DNA from: Candidatus Omnitrophota bacterium
Lineage (GTDB): Bacteria > Omnitrophota > Gorgyraeia > Duberdicusellales > 4484-171
NCBI GenBank assembly: GCA_041652815.1
Contig: JBAZGN010000003.1
Span: 129,530 to 193,529 of the forward strand
DNA length: 64,000 nt
Direction of reading: 5' to 3'
The position numbers and the translations under genes were made by a program. Below the pieces are notes generated by a model. The model made no database searches. It was not told the origin of the DNA and was given only the letters and a program-made list of their open reading frames with translations. Positions 11,346-57,156 of the stretch are shown here, in pieces; within the stretch, counting starts at the first letter, position 1, and each line of letters begins with the position of its first letter.

Positions 11346-11418
11346 GCCCCTATAGCTCAAACGGACAGAGCGCGGCCCTCCTAAGGCTGAAATCCCCGTT
11401 CGACTCGGGGTGGGGGCA
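11346..11418 (+). tRNA. tRNA-Arg(CCT)
   Basis: Hand-folded cloverleaf: acceptor GCCCCTA/TGGGGGC, D-stem GCTC/GAGC, anticodon loop CTCCTAA (anticodon CCT), T-arm CCCCG-TTCGACT-CGGGG. CCA is not encoded. Confidence 0.8.
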
Positions 11419-11563
11419 TGGTTTAACACCCTTTAACGTCTCACAGCCTATCGATTTGCCTTTACGCCCTTACAGGCAGGTGTCGGATACACTGCAAAGA
11501 AAGCTTTGGCTTACAGCCAAAGAGTGTATACGACTCGGGGTGGGGGCATGGTTTAACACCCTT
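11401..11563. repeat. 33-bp perfect direct repeat (11401-11433 and 11531-11563) duplicating the tRNA-Arg 3' end plus 13 nt downstream
   Basis: The sequence cgactcggggtgggggcatggtttaacaccctt occurs twice, 130 bp apart. A small hairpin (ctttggcttacagccaaag) lies between the copies. Confidence 0.8.
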
Positions 11564-11708
11564 TGTATCACGTCCCACGTAACAAGTATCATGTTTAAGA
11601 CCTGTTACGTACCACTTGTTACTTGTTACCTTCTACATGGCTACGCAACCGCTTAACACAATCGACAGAAACTAAGCTATTCTTTTCATTAAAAAACCAC
11701 CTTTTGCC

Positions 11709-15409: not shown

Positions 15410-15883
15410 CTTCCTATAATATATCTTATGTTAACTTTTATTATTGTCTAAAATCAGCTAATAGCTAATAGGGTCAATCATTTATTGAATTATTATAAAA
15501 AGCTGTGAATTCAAGGCGGGCTTCTTACCTCTATCTATATATTCTTACTTTATGTTTATTACCGTATTCTTCCAAGCCTATAAGAATCCTACCGGAAACT
15601 AGCCTTATAATACCCCTAAATCAGTCAAAATAGCCTCGATTTTAGCTTTAAAATACGGGATAGGGTTTGTCTATGGCGGGAAATAAAAAAGGCCGATAAG
15701 GGAGATTTTCCGATGCAACCCAGCTGCCGTAGCAGCTCCAACTGCCTAGCTTGCTTTGGTCTAAAGCAACGGCTTGTTGTACTACTTTAGGCCTGTGGCT
15801 TTGCGACCCCCGGCTTTCGCGACGGGGTTTACCCTTACCGGCAATTAATATATACAATATATTTTTATTATTTTCAAGTAGGC

Positions 15884-17867: not shown

Positions 17868-18233
17868 TTAAAAGATATTTGAAGGTTTCGATATCGAAGT
17901 AAGATAAGACATGAGGCAGCGACGGTCGGTTTCTTTTATTTCGCTAAAGTATATACCAAGACAGTATGATTGTTTACCATTGTCCTGCACGTGTTCGCTT
18001 CGAACGACTACACCCTTACAGTTTATTTTTTTTACGTTTTTATGGTTAGCCTTATTAAGCGGCACAAGCAAAACTATATCAAGTTTAGTCATCGGCGCAA
18101 TAGCTTTGTTTACCGCACAATACGCACCGCTACCACTTATATTTTTGGTTTCTGTAACCAGATCACAGTCAGCTGCACAAAGCTTTAAGGCAAGATTACC
18201 TTCGATGCGGGGATAACTTCTTTTTTCGCTCAT
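17868..18233 (-). CDS. PilZ-domain protein
   Basis: Motif RSYPRIEGNLALKL...KNISGSGAY is the PilZ RxxxR...DxSxxG signature. Confidence 0.6.
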   Translation of the reverse strand: MSEKRSYPRIEGNLALKLCAADCDLVTETKNISGSGAYCAVNKAIAPMTKLDIVLLVPLNKANHKNVKKINCKGVVVRSEHVQDNGKQSYCLGIYFSEIKETDRRCLMSYLTSISKPSNIF

Positions 18234-18414: not shown

Positions 18415-18732
18415 TTACTCTATTATTGAATTAAGATAATTTTTACTCTCTTCAGCTATCTCTACAAATTCTAAACCCGCGGAATACCTCTCAGAAGCCC
18501 TTTCTTTATTGCACCAAACAACTTTTGCTTTCATGCCTAAAACCTTATTTATAAGATTAATATTTAACTTAAGGCAATTATTTTTGGGTAAAAATTCGTC
18601 GCTAAGTATGCGCACCCCGCCTACGCTTAGGTCTTTGCTAACCGTATAAAAATACTCCTTCCCGGGAAGAATATTACATTCTATCGGAAAAGAAATAGGG
18701 CTGCGTGAATTTTTTCTCTTTTCGTCGATCAT
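18415..18732 (-). CDS. PilZ-domain protein
   Basis: Motif RKNSRSPISFPIEC...KDLSVGGV is a PilZ signature. Confidence 0.6.
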   Translation of the reverse strand: MIDEKRKNSRSPISFPIECNILPGKEYFYTVSKDLSVGGVRILSDEFLPKNNCLKLNINLINKVLGMKAKVVWCNKERASERYSAGLEFVEIAEESKNYLNSIIE

Positions 18733-21223: not shown

Positions 21224-21262
21224 GGGAAAAAAATGCCTGCGAAGCGTGCATTTTTTGGGTTA
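21224..21262. repeat. Hairpin AAAAAATGC-CTGCGAAGCGT-GCATTTTTT (family copy 1; copy 2 at 39033-39072 in opposite orientation)
   Basis: A 9-bp A/T-rich stem with an 11-nt loop is identical in both copies. Confidence 0.55.
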
Positions 21263-21272
21263 AAAAAGAAAA

Positions 21273-31700: not shown

Positions 31701-31727
31701 GTCAACCTCCTTCAAACGCTAATTTAC

Positions 31728-31875
31728 GCCAATCAAACGCCAATGGCCGCGAATAATTTTACTCGCATTTATCCAAAACCGAATAAAAATTCCGGTTCTT
31801 AGATTGTTTCCCATTCGCGTAAATTCGCGTTTATACCCAAAACATTATCAAGGTATAAATTCGCGAATATTCGCG
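31728..31875. promoter_or_regulatory. Operator-like array of 10-bp-phased heptamers: CGCCAAT/CGCGAAT x3 (31728-31754), ATTCGCG x2 (31813-31829), ATTCGCG x2 including the 14-bp palindrome CGCGAATATTCGCG (31859-31875)
   Basis: Exact 10-bp spacing within each cluster. A near-identical architecture occurs at 46700-46812. Confidence 0.55.
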
Positions 31876-31878
31876 TTG

Positions 31879-34145: not shown

Positions 34146-34245
34146 TGAACCTCACTTCGTTCGGTTAGAGTACAGAAACCAGTAACCAGAAACTAGAACA
34201 GGAAAACATCTGGTTTCTGTGCTTTGGTTTCTGGTTTCAAATATA
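34146..34245 (-). repeat. Repeated leader element: twin CAGAAACCAG inverted repeats plus conserved box TCTAACCGAACGAAGTGAGGT abutting the accC start
   Basis: Same element family as 50070-50169 (rpsM leader). The SD-proximal box also occurs at 57053-57080 (rplX leader). Confidence 0.6.
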
Positions 34246-34246
34246 A

Positions 34247-39032: not shown

Positions 39033-39072
39033 AAAAAATGCACGCTTCGCAGGCATTTTTTGGGTTAAGCAG
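39033..39072 (-). terminator. Hairpin aacccaaaaaatgc-acgcttcgcag-gcattttttgggtt at the 3' end of the Lpd-like gene (family copy 2)
   Basis: 14-bp stem. On the minus strand it is followed by AT-rich sequence. Reverse-complement copy at 21224-21262. Confidence 0.45.
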
Positions 39073-40339: not shown

Positions 40340-40344
40340 AGCTC

Positions 40345-40465
40345 GTATCGTTAAACGTCAACCGTTAATCGTCCTTTCTGCATATTCTTGACGCAACCGA
40401 TTTACGATAAACGTAACGAGCTGCGCAACCGTTTACCGTATGACGAAATAGCAAGTGCATATACC
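40345..40465. repeat. About 120-bp palindromic intergenic element rich in GCAACCG/CGGTTGC words (copy 1; copy 2 at 49165-49287)
   Basis: cggttgcacagctcgt pairs with acgagctgcgcaaccg. Shares ttcgtct(a/g)tcg(t/g)ttgc and acgag(c/t)tgcg(c/t)aaccg...ccgtttaac with the second copy. Confidence 0.55.
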
Positions 40466-40481
40466 TCTTGTTGATAATAAT

Positions 40482-45364: not shown

Positions 45365-45528
45365 AAGCATTAAACTCTAAACACTAAACTCGAAACTCTA
45401 AACAAATCTAAAACTCTAAATTCTAAATTTAAAACAAAATGTTTTAGGGTTGGAACATTGTGGTTTCGAATTTGTTTAGGGTCTAGGGTTTCGGATTTAG
45501 AATTTACCATATTATTTTAAAATATAAG
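45365..45528. repeat. Long imperfect palindrome built from CTAAAC-type repeats (left arm) and GTTTAG-type repeats (right arm)
   Basis: Left arm aaactctaaacactaaactcgaaactctaaacaaatctaaaactctaaattctaaat. Right arm is its imperfect reverse complement. Confidence 0.55.
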
Positions 45529-46683
45529 TTATAATTCTTCAGTGAACACTTTTATTCTGTCGATACCCTTTTCGATATCTTGAGCTGAAGTTGCAAAACT
45601 TAAACGTATATAGCCTTCCGCTCCAAAGGAATCTGCCGGTATAGTTGAAACAAGGTGCTTATCCAGAAGCTGCGATGAGAATTCCACGCTGCTTAAGCCG
45701 CTCTTTTTTATATCACAAAACATATAAAATGTTCCGCTTGGCTTAATCGGCTTAATTTTTTTCAAAGCTGACAATCCCGCAAAAAGCAGATTGCGCCTTT
45801 TTTCGAATTCTTCACGCATTGTTTGCGGCCATTTCTTATCCTGAATTGCCATAAGGCCTGCCGCCTGCGATATGGAAGATGCACAGCTTGTTGTATGGTC
45901 GATTACTTTTGAAATTGCTTCTATGAAATTGTTGGCTCCCTCAAGATAACCGAGGCGCCATCCTGTCATAGAAAAACTTTTTGAGAAACCATTGACCGTA
46001 ACTGTAAACTTATGAGCATCACCGATAGAAGCAAAACTTATATGTTTCGCTCCATCGTAAGTAAGTATTTCATATATTTCATCGCTTAAAACTATTATAT
46101 TTTTGTCTTTTACGGCCTCGTAAATTGCCTTCAATTCATTTTCATTATAAGTTACGCCTGTGGGATTACTTGGGTAGTTTAAAACAAGTAGTTTGGTTTT
46201 CTTCGATATGGCGCGGCTTAATCCATCTATGCTTAATTTAAAATTATCTTTTGCTTTAGTTTTTATAATTTTGACTTTCGCGCCGCACAACTTAACCATT
46301 TCAGGATAACTCACCCAGAAAGGTGCAGGAATCAAAGCTTCTTCGTTTCTATCAAGAAGGGCAGTCATCGCCGCAAAAAGCGCATATTTAGCTCCAGCTG
46401 TAACTATGATATTTGAGCTTTCGCAGGGAATGTGATTTTCTTCTTTTAGTTTGCGGCAAATCGCTTCGCGGATTTCGCTGGTGCCTACGGAAGGAGTATA
46501 TTTTGTAAGGCCTTGGTCTATGGCTAGCTTTGCTTTTTCCTTAATAAATGAAGGGGTATCAAAATCAGGCTCTCCAGCTGCAAAATTAACAACGTCTTTG
46601 CCTTCCTTCTTAAGTTTTTTGGTTAAAGCAGTTATCTTTAGAGTGGAAGATGAGCTCAAAGCCGAAACGCGCGAACTAATCAT
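45529..46683 (-). CDS. PLP-dependent aminotransferase class I/II (aspartate aminotransferase-like)
   Basis: Fold-type I pattern with the PLP lysine in SFSKSFSMTGWRLGY. Confidence 0.8.
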   Translation of the reverse strand: MISSRVSALSSSSTLKITALTKKLKKEGKDVVNFAAGEPDFDTPSFIKEKAKLAIDQGLTKYTPSVGTSEIREAICRKLKEENHIPCESSNIIVTAGAKYALFAAMTALLDRNEEALIPAPFWVSYPEMVKLCGAKVKIIKTKAKDNFKLSIDGLSRAISKKTKLLVLNYPSNPTGVTYNENELKAIYEAVKDKNIIVLSDEIYEILTYDGAKHISFASIGDAHKFTVTVNGFSKSFSMTGWRLGYLEGANNFIEAISKVIDHTTSCASSISQAAGLMAIQDKKWPQTMREEFEKRRNLLFAGLSALKKIKPIKPSGTFYMFCDIKKSGLSSVEFSSQLLDKHLVSTIPADSFGAEGYIRLSFATSAQDIEKGIDRIKVFTEEL

Positions 46684-46699
46684 TTTATATGCTAATTTA

Positions 46700-46812
46700 C
46701 GCGAATCTAACGCGAATTATCGCGAATAATAAAAATAATACACCCAACTAACGTAAATTTATAGAAAATATTTCATTCGCGAACATTCGCGTGCAATTAG
46801 CGAATATTCGCG
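46700..46812. promoter_or_regulatory. Operator-like array: CGCGAAT x3 (46700-46727), ATTCGCG x2 (46775-46791), palindrome GCGAATATTCGC (46800-46811)
   Basis: Same heptamer, spacing and order as at 31728-31875, upstream of the aminotransferase start. Confidence 0.55.
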
Positions 46813-46815
46813 TTA

Positions 46816-47331: not shown

Positions 47332-48350
47332 ACTAATTCCAATTTCTTTCTATCTATTTTTACCCCAAGATTAAGCCCCATGGTTTTAAGAAGATTAACT
47401 ACTTCAGTGAGCGATTTCTTACCGAAATTCCGGTAGGATAATATCTCAGTCTCGGTTTTCTCAACCAAGTCAGCTAAAGATTTTATATTCGCCTCCCGAA
47501 GACAGTTTGCGCTACGCACCGAAAGCTCCAATTCTGTTATAGGAATTTTTAATTTCTCATAGAGCGAAACTTCCTCTGGCGTAAGCTCTTCTGTCTCTTC
47601 TTCGGGAATTTCGCCAAGAGTAAAGAAAAGCTCTAAATGCTTGCTTAAAACCTTGGCAGCATAAATTAGAGCTTCTTTTGGCTCTATACTTGCGTTTGTA
47701 AAAATTTCTATAATAAGTTTATCGTAATCCGTTCTTTTTCCAACCCTAGTATTTTCTACTTTAAAAGTGACTCTTTTAACAGGAGTAAAAATCGAATCTA
47801 TCGGAATAACTCCAATAGGCATGTCTTCTCTTTTATTATTCTCTGCAAGAACAAATCCTCTGCCGCGGCCTACTTCCATCTCTATATCAATTTTAGCCTT
47901 CTTTGAAGTAAGCGTTGCGATATGCTGGTCGGGATTTATAACTTCAATACTCTCGTCAGTTGTAATATCCGAAGCTTTTACTTGCTTTTCCCCTTCTACT
48001 TTCAGGGTTATTTTCTTGGGAGATTTGGAATATGACCTTAGAACAACGTTCTTGATATTTAAAATTATTTCCGGAACATCTTCCAGGACCCCTTCAATTG
48101 TAGAAAATTCATGGGAGCACCCTTCTATTTTAACAGAAGTGATAGCTGCACCCTCAATAGAAGAAATAAGCACACGCCTAAGGGCGTTACCCAGAGTAAC
48201 TCCATAACCTCTTTCCAGGGGTTCAGCGACGAATTTGCCATAATTAGGGCAATAGGTTTCTTGCTCAACTGTTATTCTTTTGGGAAATTGGAAATCTCGC
48301 CAGGTTATTCCCATTGTTTTACCTCCTTCAATGAGATAGCATTTTTTCAA
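47328..48350 (-). CDS. rpoA: DNA-directed RNA polymerase alpha subunit
   Basis: NTD and CTD motifs (LGNALRRVLISS...). Confidence 0.92.
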   Translation of the reverse strand: MKKCYLIEGGKTMGITWRDFQFPKRITVEQETYCPNYGKFVAEPLERGYGVTLGNALRRVLISSIEGAAITSVKIEGCSHEFSTIEGVLEDVPEIILNIKNVVLRSYSKSPKKITLKVEGEKQVKASDITTDESIEVINPDQHIATLTSKKAKIDIEMEVGRGRGFVLAENNKREDMPIGVIPIDSIFTPVKRVTFKVENTRVGKRTDYDKLIIEIFTNASIEPKEALIYAAKVLSKHLELFFTLGEIPEEETEELTPEEVSLYEKLKIPITELELSVRSANCLREANIKSLADLVEKTETEILSYRNFGKKSLTEVVNLLKTMGLNLGVKIDRKKLELV

Positions 48351-48354
48351 ATGG

Positions 48355-48510
48355 TAGTGCAGAAAAAATGCGTAATCGAATTGAACCCCGCCCTTTTGGC
48401 GAAGTCATAATTATTTTATTTACCCCACCAAAAGGGCGGGGTAAATTCGGCCTAACATTTTTCCTTCGGACGCCTGCCTTACGGCAGTCAGCCTTGAAAA
48501 AATGTTGGCC
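48355..48510. other. Structured spacer between rpsD and rpoA: two hairpins with 14-bp stems
   Basis: ccccgcccttttgg...ccaaaagggcgggg and ggcctaacattttt...aaaaaatgttggcc. Confidence 0.5.
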
Positions 48511-49140
48511 TCATTTAGAATAAAGTTCCACTATCAACTGTTCATTGACAGGTAATATAATATCTTCTTTTTCGGGAAGACGTATAATTTTTGCGCTGAA
48601 TGTATCTTTATCTATTTCTAGCCAACCTGCTATGCTGCGCTCTTTAGCATTTGCATCGTATGTTTCTTTAAGCGCTTTCTTAGTATTATCCTTTGCTTTT
48701 ATTTCTATAGTCGAGCCTGCGCTTACAAGATAAGAAGGGATATTTACTCTTTTACCGTTAACAAAAACAAACCCGTGCAAAACCATCTGCCGGGCCGCTT
48801 CCCGCGATGTAGTGAATAACATTCTAAAAATAACGTTATCAAGCCTTCGCTCAAGAAGCTGTAACAGCGCTCTTCCGGTTGCTCCTTTAGTCTTTGTCGC
48901 AATCTGGAAAAACCTTTTAAACTGTTTTTCCAACATTCCATACATCCATTTTACCCTCTGTTTTTCCCTTAACTGCAATGCGTAATAAGAAGGCTTGGAA
49001 GATATCCTTGTATGCATGCCTGGAGGTGTTGGCCTTTTTGAAAAGGCACATTTTTCCATCGAACAACGTGTACCTTTCAGAAAAAGTTTCATTCCTTCCC
49101 GTCTGCACAATTTACATTTTGACCCTAAATTTCTGCCCAT
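48511..49140 (-). CDS. rpsD: 30S ribosomal protein S4
   Basis: S4 signature including an N-terminal Zn-ribbon-like CKLCRREG. Confidence 0.92.
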   Translation of the reverse strand: MGRNLGSKCKLCRREGMKLFLKGTRCSMEKCAFSKRPTPPGMHTRISSKPSYYALQLREKQRVKWMYGMLEKQFKRFFQIATKTKGATGRALLQLLERRLDNVIFRMLFTTSREAARQMVLHGFVFVNGKRVNIPSYLVSAGSTIEIKAKDNTKKALKETYDANAKERSIAGWLEIDKDTFSAKIIRLPEKEDIILPVNEQLIVELYSK

Positions 49141-49164
49141 TTTAACCTCGCTATTTTGTAATAA

Positions 49165-49287
49165 CCTTTAGGTTGCGTTTTTCGTCTATCGTTTGCCTGC
49201 CCGCCTTCGGCGGGCGAGCTCGTTTCGTCTTACGCATAACGCAACCGTGACGAGTTGCGTAACCGCAACCGTTTAACATAGCTTTAA
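49165..49287. repeat. GCAACCG-rich palindromic element, copy 2 (see 40345-40465)
   Basis: Contains ggttgcgtttttcgtctatcgtttgcc, hairpin gcccgccttcggcgggc, and acgagttgcgtaaccgcaaccgtttaac. Confidence 0.5.
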
Positions 49288-50069: not shown

Positions 50070-50169
50070 ATTTACCTCACTTTGTTCGGTTAGAAACCAG
50101 AAACCTGATTACAGAGTACAGAATGATTGCTTAATCTGGTTTCTGTTCTCTGGTTTCTGTAATCTCTTA
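50070..50169 (-). repeat. Leader element, copy 2: twin CAGAAACCAG inverted repeats plus box TCTAACCGAACAAAGTGAGGT abutting the rpsM start
   Basis: Alignable to the accC leader at 34146-34245. Confidence 0.6.
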
Positions 50170-50283
50170 TCATCCTTGTCTTTGCTTGTGCTTCTGGTTC
50201 TTGCAAATAACCCGCACAACGCCTTTTCGTCTTACAATCTTACACCTTTCGCAAATTCTTTTTACTGAACTTCTTACTTTCAT
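50170..50283 (-). CDS. rpmJ: 50S ribosomal protein L36
   Basis: 37 aa, [37 protein letters not shown]. Below the ORF-track length cut-off. Confidence 0.88.
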
Positions 50284-50290
50284 TTTTATT

Positions 50291-50405
50291 CCTGTTTTGC
50301 ACAGATTAGCACAGATTACAAAGCAAATGATCGCAGATAGAATCATCTGTGATCATCTGTGTCTGCCGTTTGTGATTATCTGTGTTTTTCATTTATATCT
50401 GTACG
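50291..50405. repeat. CACAGAT/ATCTGTG heptamer-repeat element, copy A
   Basis: Contains cacagattagcacagatt...gatgatcgcagat...atctgtgatcatctgtg...tatctgtg. Copy B at 55757-55882. Confidence 0.6.
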
Positions 50406-51353: not shown

Positions 51354-51976
51354 ATCAACTTTTTTATGCGCACTAAAACAATATCCTTATTGCCTCGTGC
51401 ATCTATGGCAATAAGTTTATTTTTCTTCTTGTAATAATCCAACAGGCTCTTATTTTCGTTAAGAAAAACTTCCCAACGTTTCTTGATAACTTCAGGGGTA
51501 TCGTCTTTTCTCTGAATCAACTCTGAGCCGCAGCTGTCGCATATGCCTGTTTTTTTAGGAGGCATATTTACCATATGATAGTTCGCCCCGCATTGCTTAC
51601 ATACAAGTCTTTTGGTGAGCCTCTCTAAAATTGTCGGCTCATCAACTTCAAGATAAATAAAAGCATCAATACTCGCGCCTTTTTTTACCAAAATCTTATC
51701 CAGGGTTTTTGCCTGGTTAAGGTTACGCGGGTAGCCGTCGAGTATAAAATTTTCTTCGTTAAGGTTTTCTTCTATTACCTTTGAAACCAAAATATCCGGA
51801 ACCAGCAGCCCTTTTTCCATGTAGCTTTTCACTTCTTTTCCAAGCGGGCTGTCTTTTTTTACTTCTTCCCGAAAAATATCACCCAAGGATATACGTTTTA
51901 ATTTATAATGCTCGCTAAGAGCTATTGCCTGGGTACCTTTGCCTGAACCGGGTGCTCCAAAAAGAATTATCTTCAT
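51350..51976 (-). CDS. adk: Adenylate kinase (with Zn-binding lid CxxC...CxxC)
   Basis: P-loop GAPGSGKGTQ. Lid motif CKQCGANYH...CDSCGSEL. Confidence 0.92.
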   Translation of the reverse strand: MKIILFGAPGSGKGTQAIALSEHYKLKRISLGDIFREEVKKDSPLGKEVKSYMEKGLLVPDILVSKVIEENLNEENFILDGYPRNLNQAKTLDKILVKKGASIDAFIYLEVDEPTILERLTKRLVCKQCGANYHMVNMPPKKTGICDSCGSELIQRKDDTPEVIKKRWEVFLNENKSLLDYYKKKNKLIAIDARGNKDIVLVRIKKLI

Positions 51977-51990
51977 TGCATCCTTTTATG

Positions 51991-52081
51991 ATAGAAGCGG
52001 ATTGCCGCGGATATTTACGCGGATTTCCGCACGCAAGTCGCTGGCGTTTATCCGCGTTTAAATCCGCGGATATCCGCTTCT
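51991..52081. repeat. About 90-bp palindromic GCGGAT-rich element, copy 1 (between secY and adk)
   Basis: tagaagcggattgccgcggatatttacgcggat...atccgcgtttaaatccgcggatatccgcttcta. Second copy at 56097-56183. Confidence 0.7.
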
Positions 52082-52084
52082 ATA

Positions 52085-55753: not shown

Positions 55754-55756
55754 TAT

Positions 55757-55882
55757 GTCTCCTTATATACACAGATTAGCGTAGATTTTGAAACGGATGA
55801 TCGCAGATGATTTTTATCTGTGGTCATCTGTGACTTCTCATTTCTGGCTATCTGTAATTTTTTATCCGTGATCATCTGTGTA
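55757..55882. repeat. CACAGAT/ATCTGTG heptamer-repeat element, copy B (between rpsN and rpsH)
   Basis: Contains cacagattagcgtagatt...gatgatcgcagatga...atctgtggtcatctgtg...gtgatcatctgtg. Confidence 0.6.
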
Positions 55883-56077
55883 TTACCAACTCGCCTTTTT
55901 TAAACCGGGGATAACCCCCTGCCAGGCAAGTTGCCTGAAACAAATACGGCAAAGTTCAAAATCCCTTATGTAACCGCGAGGCCTGCCGCATAACCGGCAA
56001 CGGTTTCTGTAGCGGGTTGAAAACTTTGGTTTTATTTTTTCTTTTTTCCATTTTTCAATTTTTGCAGTTGTCGCCAT
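55883..56077 (-). CDS. rpsN: 30S ribosomal protein S14, type Z (zinc-binding)
   Basis: 61 aa with [23 protein letters not shown]. Confidence 0.9.
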
Positions 56078-56096
56078 TTTTAACTCCTATTCTATA

Positions 56097-56183
56097 GATG
56101 CGGATTACCGCGGATATTTACGCGGATTTACGCACTGTCATTGCGGTTATCCGCGTTTAAATCCGCGGCTATCCGCTTCTATT
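56097..56183. repeat. About 90-bp palindromic GCGGAT-rich element, copy 2 (between rplE and rpsN)
   Basis: tagatgcggattaccgcggatatttacgcggat...atccgcgtttaaatccgcggctatccgcttcta. The arms are near-identical to copy 1; the centres differ. Confidence 0.7.
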
Positions 56184-56186
56184 CTT

Positions 56187-57052: not shown

Positions 57053-57156
57053 TTAAACCTCGCTTCGCTCGGTTAGATAACATATGGCAGTTATCAGGTT
57101 GTAGATGCCAGATGAAATTATCTGCCTAACTGCTATCTGCAATCTGCTATCTGTTT
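57053..57156. repeat. rplX leader: conserved box TCTAACCGAGCGAAGCGAGGT plus ATCTGC/ATCTGT repeat tract
   Basis: cgcttcgctcggttagata abuts the rplX start. atctgcctaactgctatctgcaatctgctatctgt lies upstream. Confidence 0.5.

Follow-up and report, generated by a model that had tools for sequence, protein, structure and literature searches.

Palindromic elements in the spc ribosomal operon of a Candidatus Omnitrophota bacterium, probably derived from a GxxExxY gene cassette

Short hairpin-forming repeats between bacterial genes are known from several systems. REPINs, doublets of repetitive extragenic palindromic (REP) sequences that form hairpins, are reportedly associated with RAYT (REP-associated tyrosine) transposases. 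Miniature inverted-repeat transposable elements (MITEs) in transcribed spacers of bacteria include Correia/NEMIS of Neisseria, RUP of Streptococcus and ERIC/IRU of enterobacteria; Correia hairpins are substrates of RNase III, and ERIC affects mRNA in an orientation-dependent way. Intervening sequences with an internal open reading frame (ORF; PF05635, 23S_rRNA_IVP) occur in the 23S rRNA of Leptospira, Coxiella and the Candidate Phyla Radiation (CPR). Here we describe a palindromic element of about 90 nt that is present twice in the spc ribosomal-protein operon of a Candidatus Omnitrophota bacterium, within a stretch of 64,000 nt (assembly GCA_041652815.1, contig JBAZGN010000003.1, positions 129,530 to 193,529; the window). 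Both probably inserted specifically in this lineage, as copies of a small mobile element of Omnitrophota that is non-autonomous and derives from a longer cassette carrying a GxxExxY gene. The observations behind this reading concern sequence and fold, dispersal, empty and filled sites, a bias in orientation and position, gene-bearing relatives and a relationship by deletion.

The operon genes that carry both copies are located on the minus strand, and the copies occupy the secY/adk and rplE/rpsN spacers (Table 1). A preliminary description of the same DNA had placed them at 51991-52081 and 56097-56183, a few bases off the boundaries given here. Each copy is an inverted repeat over its full length with the termini TAGAAGC/GCTTCTA and contains no ORF. 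An arm consists of the TAGAAGC terminus followed by three occurrences of the word CGCGGAT at a spacing of 10-12 nt, or about one helical turn, in the layout TAGAAGCGGAT-nn-CCGCGGAT-nnnn-ACGCGGAT-nn-ACGC. The 20-nt arm pattern was matched four times in the window against 0.00 matches expected from shuffled sequence. As described previously, the arms of the two copies are nearly identical (93-95%) and their centres divergent: that of copy 1, CAGCGACTTGCGTGCG, represents the commonest lineage of short elements, and that of copy 2, AATGACAGTGCGT, keeps the 3' end of the GxxExxY reading frame. The distance to the upstream stop codon, previously put at 3-4 bp for both, is 4 nt for copy 2 and only 1 nt for copy 1. 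Copy 1 is not an assembly artefact because it is base-for-base identical in an independent assembly of the same strain (L001; L numbers denote loci), which was found by an exact-protein look-up with Adk; this look-up returned the same strain only, and the one with SecY returned no match.

The long hairpins anticipated from the arms are predicted to be very stable. The sense-strand RNA of copy 1 folds with -55.4 kcal/mol (z -8.77) and that of copy 2 with -51.3 kcal/mol (z -10.50), and none of 200 shuffles folded as well as the real copies. Beyond the terminal helix H1, the arms pair in helices of 8-9 bp (H2), 8 bp (H3) and 3-4 bp (H4), which are separated by unpaired, A/U-rich internal loops of 2x2, 4x4 and then 2x2 or 3x3 nt.

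Table 1. Positions in the window of the two elements, their surroundings and helices, and of further hairpins (SD, Shine-Dalgarno sequence).
Feature	Position	Strand	Remarks
Copy 1	51991-52083	-	93-nt imperfect palindrome, secY/adk spacer
secY stop codon	52085-52087	-	brackets copy 1
adk ATG	51974-51976	-	brackets copy 1
Tail after copy 1	51977-51990	-	14 nt, sense CATAAAAGGATGCA, holds adk SD AAGGA
Copy 1 H1	52072-52083 with 51991-52002		12 bp
Copy 1 H2	52062-52069 with 52005-52012
Copy 1 H3	52050-52057 with 52017-52024
Copy 1 H4	52044-52046 with 52028-52030
Copy 2	56094-56182	-	89-nt imperfect palindrome, rplE/rpsN spacer
rplE stop codon	56187-56189	-	brackets copy 2
rpsN ATG	56075-56077	-	brackets copy 2
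Last two rplE codons	56190-56195	-	AGG CGA in the window, AGG AGG in 10 relatives; synonymous (Arg-Arg)
Gap between rplE stop codon and copy 2	56183-56186	-	4 nt, sense AAGA, absent from relatives
Tail after copy 2	56078-56093	-	16 nt, sense AGAATAGGAGTTAAAA, new SD AGGAG for rpsN
Copy 2 H1	56172-56182 with 56094-56104		11 bp, one internal mismatch
Copy 2 H2	56161-56169 with 56107-56115
Copy 2 H3	56149-56156 with 56120-56127
Copy 2 H4	56142-56145 with 56131-56134
CACAGAT hairpins	50289-50390; 55754-55882
CAGAAAC hairpins	50092-50171; 34146-34246
GCAGAT hairpin	57053-57156
CGCGAAT hairpins	46686-46814; 31716-31878
CTAAAC hairpin	45365-45549
ACGGTTGCG-type hairpins	49153-49287; 40340-40481

Comparison of the spc spacers with those of relatives distinguishes insertions from conserved leaders. 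An exact-protein search with RpsN retrieved ten contigs with a whole S10-spc operon, which served as close relatives; their DNA shares 80-89% identity with the window. Their rplE/rpsN spacer is a single nucleotide in all ten cases (..AGG AGG TAA A ATG), and the secY/adk spacer measures 18-23 nt in all seven that reach adk (TAA TTTTAAAAGAAAGGATTAAAA GTG; empty and filled secY/adk sites were compared by eye). The corresponding filled spacers of the window comprise 109 and 108 nt. In more distant relatives, whose SecY proteins are 57-65% identical, the secY/adk distance mostly ranges from -4 to +21 nt, with 29 nt in L169. The reciprocal case is provided by L024, the orthologous alpha/spc operon of the metagenome-assembled genome (MAG) SO_2017_LW3_58 with about 73% DNA identity to the window: here an element occupies the rpsM/rpsK spacer, which in the window is empty and 14 nt long. 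From one of these genomes to the other the elements keep about 87-95% identity, well above the roughly 73% of the flanking genes. This kinship by itself would assign the window to Omnitrophota. By this spacer comparison, copies 1 and 2 are lineage-specific insertions and not conserved leaders. The preliminary description had named the opposite pattern, two copies only and both conserved in relatives, as the one that would speak for a structured regulatory RNA; instead, both window sites are empty in relatives, and a single MAG contains at least 20 copies.

The junctions point to how the operon accommodated copy 2. In the relatives the Shine-Dalgarno sequence (SD) of rpsN is formed by the last two rplE codons, AGG AGG, 4 nt ahead of the ATG. 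The synonymous substitution in the window (Table 1) indicates that this native SD was destroyed after the insertion had parted it from rpsN. Translation of rpsN would now depend on the tail of copy 2, which together with the start codon reads TAGAATAGGAGTTAAAA ATG. An SD-bearing tail is absent from the relatives, whose spacer is the single A, and the tail resembles those following gene-bearing elements in L023 (TAAACAAGGAGTAAAA) and L145 (TAAAACAGGAGTACAAAAAG); it may thus have come in with copy 2. Since relatives are without the four bases AAGA between the rplE stop codon and copy 2, we count this gap as part of the inserted DNA or of the insertion junction. By contrast, the tail of copy 1 resembles the native secY/adk spacer of relatives (..AAAGAAAGGATTAAAA GTG), and the SD of adk may therefore be older than the insertion.

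The element is dispersed well beyond the spc operon. A scan with the arm pattern CCGCGGATWWWWACGCGGAT of one genome per species (185,579 species) yielded 60 loci, compared with an estimated 17 or so expected by chance; 32 of the 60 carry the title Candidatus Omnitrophota or Omnitrophica, and 20 belong to the single MAG SO_2017_LW3_58. Full elements were also present on two contigs labelled Planctomycetia (L004, L044). Viral contigs scanned with the same pattern gave 0 matches and hence no sign of carriage by phages. A profile search delivered 22 full short copies of 83-93 nt, which were aligned; against the profile (nhmmer), copy 1 scores 116.6 in sense and 60.0 in antisense orientation. The short copies are spread over many unrelated operons of several Omnitrophota MAGs. 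They are abundant, extragenic, hairpin-forming doublets in the manner of REP sequences, and they are small, non-coding, bounded by terminal inverted repeats and polymorphic for presence or absence in the manner of MITEs. The initial comparison with REP sequences, bacterial interspersed mosaic elements or MITEs thus holds, and its MITE side is strengthened by the gene-bearing parent described below. The centre of copy 1 (CAGCGAsTTrCCGTGCG) recurs in many copies of other MAGs, so one deletion derivative went on to multiply.

Position and orientation of the short copies are biased. The element is located almost exclusively between genes of the same direction, and there about 16 copies are in sense and 2-3 in antisense orientation. 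In many cases the distance from the upstream stop codon is 0-5 nt. At least 13 of the 22 have an SD 4-8 nt past the 3' terminus and a start codon at +13 to +20. The upstream ORF stops exactly at the TAG of the element in five of six gene-bearing and in at least five short copies (e.g. MnmE, ..CIGK-TAG). All three frames of the sense strand are closed within about 12 codons by the terminal TAG, a TAA in the 4x4 linker and a TAA in GGATAAACGC; on the antisense strand of copy 1 one frame is open through the entire element. TA flanks nearly all copies at both ends, and at 80-89% identity the empty and filled sites do not separate a TA that belongs to the terminus from one that was duplicated.

Some matches of the profile turned out to be half-elements which lie a few hundred bases apart and enclose an ORF. 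The ORFs of L021 (130 aa) and L023 (111 aa; internally deleted) both encode GxxExxY proteins (TIGR04256, E 2e-31 and 4e-18; PF13366, PDDEXK_3). The long form is thus a cassette of about 0.5 kb with one GxxExxY gene of about 130 codons in the loop of the same arms (TAGAAGCGGAT..CCGCGGAT..ACGCGGAT..ACGCACAG and complement). Its GCGGAT type has the inner arm ends ACGCACAG and CTGTGCGT; the 5' half is arranged as TAGAAGCGGAT..CCGCGGAT....ACGCGGAT..ACGCACAG-aaagt-ATG[ORF] and the 3' half as [ORF]..CTGTGCGT-CT-ATCCGCGT(AA)-AT-ATCCGCGG-..-ATCCGCTTCTAT. The end of the ORF (..V-R/C-L-S-A-stop) coincides with the 3' strand of H4 and H3 in the arm, and about half of 40 aligned GxxExxY homologues end in -SA. 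At these loci, which were not subjected to a dedicated scan for Y1 transposases, the gene between the arms belongs to PF13366 and not to PF01797.

A homologue search located close relatives of this protein in Omnitrophota and Patescibacteria (Sungbacteria, Giovannonibacteria) and added six gene-bearing contexts: L142, L145 and L151 (Omnitrophota), L148 (Sungbacteria, between atpH and atpA), L152, and L158 (Giovannonibacteria). In each of them the gene follows a co-directional host gene in sense orientation and is flanked by inverted arrays of 7-8-nt words; the next gene is co-directional in five and convergent in L158. The layout of arms plus ORF was therefore seen at 8/8 distinct intact GxxExxY loci examined in the two phyla. 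It is shared by a decayed copy in the rpsK/rpsD spacer of L096, which was the third match of a tblastn search over 1.47 Mb of fetched DNA. Two more partial homologues came from a later profile search (L151 2-175 and L051 7548-8000); in L051, words in inverted orientation precede the ORF and the end of the locus cuts off the remainder. The arm words vary by lineage (GCGGAT, GCAGAA, GCTGAT, ACGGAT, ACAGAT) around a common core C-N-GA-T/A. Most gene-bearing loci have the termini TAGA....GA / TC....TCTA, none being identified in L158.

Several traits connect the short copies to this long form. They retain ACGC(A/C)AG, then 3-14 nt, then (C)GTGCGT, i.e. the bases that flank the ORF in the long form, and the end points of the deletion differ among copies. 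In an alignment, AATGACAGTGCGT from the centre of copy 2 has its counterpart in the ORF tail AATGCCGTGTGT of L145, the H4 bracket is common to long and short copies, and intermediate decayed forms exist in L037 (3509-3762) and L013. The arms of one gene-bearing copy, P0014 (L145-L147), are nearly identical to those of the window, and it shares three samples with the window strain, a co-occurrence at the level of samples. Because bases from both sides of the ORF are retained, the alignments identify the short copies as MITE-like internal-deletion derivatives of the long cassette.

The long-form protein is a clear member of its family, with 108.8 bits for TIGR04256 (cut-off 35) and 108.9 bits for PF13366 (cut-off 22). 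E30, P68-D69 and E79-x-K81 are the catalytic residues invariant across the alignment. In a Foldseek comparison of its AlphaFold model (predicted local distance difference test, pLDDT, 90.8), the best neighbours were PD-(D/E)XK nucleases only, namely LHK-Exo, Cas4, Hjc resolvase, RecE and lambda exonuclease, none of which reached E 0.001. A weak similarity to phage T7 endonuclease I extends over the catalytic core (PDB, E 0.013; Pfam, E 5e-4, under the cut-off) and may serve as a lead, not as a result, towards a nuclease acting on branched DNA or cruciforms. The family is very large (19,081 clusters at 50% identity with E <= 1e-3), and our literature searches found neither the present repeats nor the genomic context of GxxExxY genes described. 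Many representatives (P0121-P0267) have about 265 aa and two tandem domains, possibly as single-chain dimers; in others the domain lies within ORFs of 250-900 aa which are probably read-through fusions with the adjacent host gene. Many homologues are located on contigs of 1-2 kb.

Taking these data together, we propose that the cassette moves as DNA and that its own GxxExxY nuclease would be the likeliest enzyme to act on the arms themselves or on a hairpin or cruciform made by them. This nuclease is the most economical candidate for the mover since it is the sole gene of the cassette, co-varies with the arms in two phyla and has its end built into an arm. After loss of the gene the miniatures would persist and still multiply, as REPINs and MITEs do. 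Cassettes and miniatures alike are found in the narrow gaps between co-transcribed genes and behave there as independent units, the TAG of the element often ending the upstream gene and the SD 4-8 nt after its 3' terminus serving the downstream gene. In this way the downstream gene would remain translatable even at rplE/rpsN, whose native SD lay in the upstream gene. The spc copies are presumably co-transcribed with their operon and place a very stable hairpin between cistrons, just upstream of a free SD. Such a hairpin appears to be tolerated; cleavage by RNase III or protection of the upstream 3' end may be reasonable consequences. The roles envisaged in the preliminary description, as mRNA stabiliser, processing site or attenuator, are likewise plausible as possible effects of the hairpin. 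The excess of sense copies could result from selection that preserves the stop and SD signals; in the long form, expression of the gene by read-through could be selected as well.

Several points weigh against this proposal. We saw no transposition event, no excision product and no unambiguous target-site duplication, and the invariant flanking TA fits a terminus and a duplication equally. GxxExxY is no known transposase, its action on the arms is something we infer, and the function of the family is listed as unknown (PMC3424549). Look-ups of one GxxExxY protein on many contigs always led to the same site and to no recently moved copy. The biases in orientation and position could be explained by purifying selection alone. 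Equal folding of the two strands lends no support to a function at the RNA level, nor does the absence of any pair altered on both sides among the 22 short copies support selection on the hairpin itself. Finally, all data are metagenome assemblies, the window's own genome being represented by 64 kb.

Alternatively, the copies may be REP-like RNA elements that serve the host by 3'-end protection, as RNase III sites or in translational decoupling, and that are selected for such a role and not for mobility. Their strictly intercistronic, sense-biased placement, the high stability of hairpins which leave the SD free and the many unrelated hairpin families in the same kind of spacer in this lineage are compatible with this idea. 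The hairpins are dispensable, however, given that relatives at 80-89% identity manage with spacers of 1 nt and about 20 nt. Although 94.3% of the cells in the alignment of the 22 short copies pair, compensatory changes are lacking. There is no G-U or energy advantage of the sense strand either: the antisense strands fold equally well (-57.7 kcal/mol for copy 1 and -51.2 kcal/mol for copy 2), and one sister family folds better in antisense. A host role would also leave the derivation from a gene-bearing cassette unexplained, and we consider it unlikely. Without compensatory changes and strand asymmetry, and with relatives that do without the hairpins, the data give no support for selection on RNA structure.

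The TA found at both ends of nearly all copies recalls MITEs that duplicate a TA target, such as RUP and Correia, and nothing ties GxxExxY to transposition. The short copies might then be MITEs of the ordinary kind, mobilised in trans by some conventional transposase, for example a TA-targeting one of the IS630/Tc1 type, with GxxExxY as a passenger. We regard this as quite unlikely. A passenger would not be expected to reside within one arm architecture at 8/8 loci in two phyla and with differing words, and insertion into the TA of stop codons does not agree with the T that mostly follows the 3' TA. No transposase gene was seen beside any copy, though the loci were not scanned systematically for one.

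Very unlikely, in our judgement, is the inverse order of events in which short hairpins came first and acted as landing pads for GxxExxY, a separate selfish gene that entered their loops. It would account for a gene that is invariably in the loop and for short copies that far outnumber long ones at the loci examined. The last codons of the ORF, however, are situated in the 3' arm, and the -SA ending is encoded by the arm word across the GCGGAT, GCTGAT and ACGGAT variants, which argues that gene and arms evolve as one unit. The remnants of both ORF edges with their several deletion end points and the decayed intermediates in L037, L013 and L096 likewise speak against landing pads.

Next to no chance is left for the view that the copies are intrinsic terminators or conserved cis-regulatory RNAs, such as autoregulatory leaders or attenuators, of the spc operon. 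Regulatory leaders are indeed known from ribosomal-protein operons such as this one, but both sites are empty in all relatives, which already refutes the idea. The element is present in unrelated operons elsewhere, no Rfam family matched either copy at the gathering threshold, and a terminator scan of the sense strand of both copies made no call, nor is there a T-tract. The sequences 3' of the hairpins are CATAAAAGGA and TAGAATAGGAG. A promoter scan made no call on the sense strand; a single promoter-like match at chance level is located on the plus strand inside copy 1. GGA motifs of the CsrA type and a resemblance to DnaA boxes were considered and dropped, as the architecture recurs in sister families built of CACAGAT or CGCGAAT.

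Going beyond the insertion of deletion derivatives at the two spc sites, it is tempting to speculate that GxxExxY proteins in general are nucleases for mobility or maintenance of a hitherto unrecognised class of palindromic intercistronic cassettes, which are exchanged between Omnitrophota and Patescibacteria and spawn REPIN-like miniatures. Each such cassette would hold one small PD-(D/E)XK nuclease gene within a word-array foldback that provides the stop codon of the preceding gene and the ribosome-binding site of the following one. We put this forward tentatively, as a possibility that may well prove wrong. The nuclease would recognise arrays of C-N-GAT words or the hairpin or cruciform formed by them, and would be a functional analogue of RAYT on a different fold. 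In some lineages such cassettes would have filled even the S10-spc-alpha ribosomal operons.

The window itself contains at least ten further intercistronic foldbacks built of arrays of words other than CGCGGAT (Table 1). The spacers at six of these hairpin sites are short and empty in L165 (87% identity to the window), which marks these six as lineage-specific insertions, too; the ribosomal gene cluster and the flank downstream of it thus contain at least six such insertions from other repeat families. The pseudogene of L096 connects the CACAGAT type to GxxExxY as well, and other relatives bear hairpin families of their own at other spacers. Foldbacks of tandem, lineage-specific words are a general feature of these lineages.

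Word-array hairpins of their own were noted in the same operon spacers of distant relatives, namely L082 (secY/adk; GTTACAT five times per arm with a period of 11), L070, L087, L096, L131, L088, L101, L090 and L093. Upstream of the rpsK/rpsD spacer the strain of L168 and the window share 98% identity, downstream of it only 89%, and the spacer has 28 nt in L168 versus about 130 nt in the window (49157-49287); the drop in identity suggests a recombination breakpoint at the hairpin insertion. Several hairpins are followed by the translation-initiation module AACCGARCGAAGYGAGGT(N4-6)ATG (window 34146-34246, 50070-50169 and 57053-57156; L024 5290-5310 and 5050-5075). The idea that it travels with CAGAAAC hairpins was dropped on account of a similar native leader at rpsM and rpsD in the hairpin-free L165, and the module is probably a strong ribosome-binding region typical of the lineage, not part of a mobile unit. 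A spacer insert of the form CCCCCACACCAA...TTGGTGTGGGGG plus a terminator-like, A/T-flanked hairpin was observed in L174 (6617-6810), L179 (6620-6835), L024 (3200-3400) and the window (48328-48512), in a different operon spacer (rpsH/rplF or rpsD/rpoA) depending on the relative.

Other features of the window lie outside the ribosomal operon. A perfect direct repeat of 34 nt (CGACTCGGGGTGGGGGCATGGTTTAACACCCTTT; 11401-11434 and 11531-11564), whose first copy overlaps the 3' end of a tRNA (11346-11418), looks like the kind of att-type duplication that remains when a small element has integrated or been excised. A cyclic di-GMP-I riboswitch (15711-15843, minus strand; Rfam, 50.9 bits) is located about 2 kb from two small genes for PilZ-domain proteins (17868-18233 and 18415-18732). 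Two 36-nt hairpins with A/T-run flanks (AAAAAATGCCTGCGAAGCGTGCATTTTTTGGGTTAA; 21228-21263 and 39033-39068) are 81% identical, have the stem inverted between the copies and look like bidirectional intrinsic terminators with a common GGGTTAA tail.

Our study shows that the most conserved and compact bacterial operon can be colonised repeatedly by hairpin elements, and that an insertion can be rendered harmless by the stop codon and ribosome-binding site which the element brings along, with subsequent decay of the old SD at rplE/rpsN. New are the parent cassette, the stop-and-SD design and the extent to which ribosomal operons have been invaded. The very large GxxExxY/PF13366 family, listed without function, is tied here to a defined DNA architecture and to miniature derivatives, a first clue to its biology. 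A testable hypothesis follows: the protein may be a nuclease, specific for structure or for words, by which foldback cassettes are moved or maintained. Such repeats probably contribute to the fragmentation of Omnitrophota and CPR assemblies, and they could serve as strain markers.

How do the elements relate to known systems? Like REPINs with their RAYTs, they are short extragenic hairpins that consist of two inverted arms, a genome contains many copies and several sequence families of them, and one protein gene is flanked by the same arms in inverted orientation. The gene, however, encodes a GxxExxY protein with a PD-(D/E)XK fold instead of an HUH/Y1 (IS200-like) transposase, and GxxExxY genes have many paralogues, unlike the single-copy RAYTs. 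Three words of 7-8 nt replace the one REP palindrome of 20-25 nt in each arm, the termini are TAGAAGC instead of GTAG, and the copies are sense-biased between cistrons, to which they bring stop and SD signals. Defined as an imperfect palindrome of 20-40 nt with a GTAG-type 5' tetranucleotide, a REP sequence proper differs from these three-word arms, which have no GTAG.

With Correia, RUP and ERIC the elements share a size of about 100 nt, non-coding inverted repeats, insertion polymorphism between relatives and, as predicted here, co-transcription with flanking genes into long RNA hairpins. Those MITEs stem from, or are moved by, DDE transposases of the insertion-sequence type and have clear TA duplications. 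The longer element with the same ends found here, by contrast, is the only sequence-related coding one, and its sole gene encodes a small protein of nuclease fold, GxxExxY, which is not a proven transposase. The element, moreover, is seemingly built to replace an intercistronic junction by stop codon, hairpin and SD.

The intervening sequences of 23S rRNA resemble the cassette in their long stem of terminal inverted repeats, in a gene of about 120-180 codons and undefined function in the loop, in their location within a highly transcribed unit and in the existence of gene-less versions. Here, the insertions lie in mRNA spacers instead of rRNA helices, and the gene belongs to PF13366 and not to PF05635; excision by RNase III is established for the intervening sequences and would be a possibility for the present elements. 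ORF-bearing intervening sequences have been described in CPR bacteria (PMC11270868). A PF05635 gene was also observed in L144 (1-960), flanked on both sides by direct, not inverted, arrays of the heptamer CCCTTAT and with a duplicated stretch of about 45 nt that includes the start of the next gene (140-185, 905-960). This cassette of different architecture lies 0.8 kb from a GxxExxY cassette (L142-L144).

Free-standing homing-endonuclease genes, which include PD-(D/E)XK types such as I-Ssp6803I, are likewise small nuclease genes between host genes, with read-through expression, patchy occurrence and signs of horizontal transfer. They differ in that no inverted word arrays surround them and no multiplying hairpin miniatures accompany them, and we know of no target-site cleavage by GxxExxY proteins. 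Gene exchange between Omnitrophota and Patescibacteria has been reported (PMC12455944). The RNase III sites in the early region of phage T7 are similar as repeated internal-loop hairpins between the cistrons of one transcript in one orientation, but they are fixed functional processing signals, neither mobile nor polymorphic, and have no coding relatives. On balance, the behaviour of the Omnitrophota elements appears closest to that of REPINs with their RAYTs and of the co-transcribed MITEs Correia, RUP and ERIC, and their architecture closest to that of the ORF-bearing intervening sequences of 23S rRNA.

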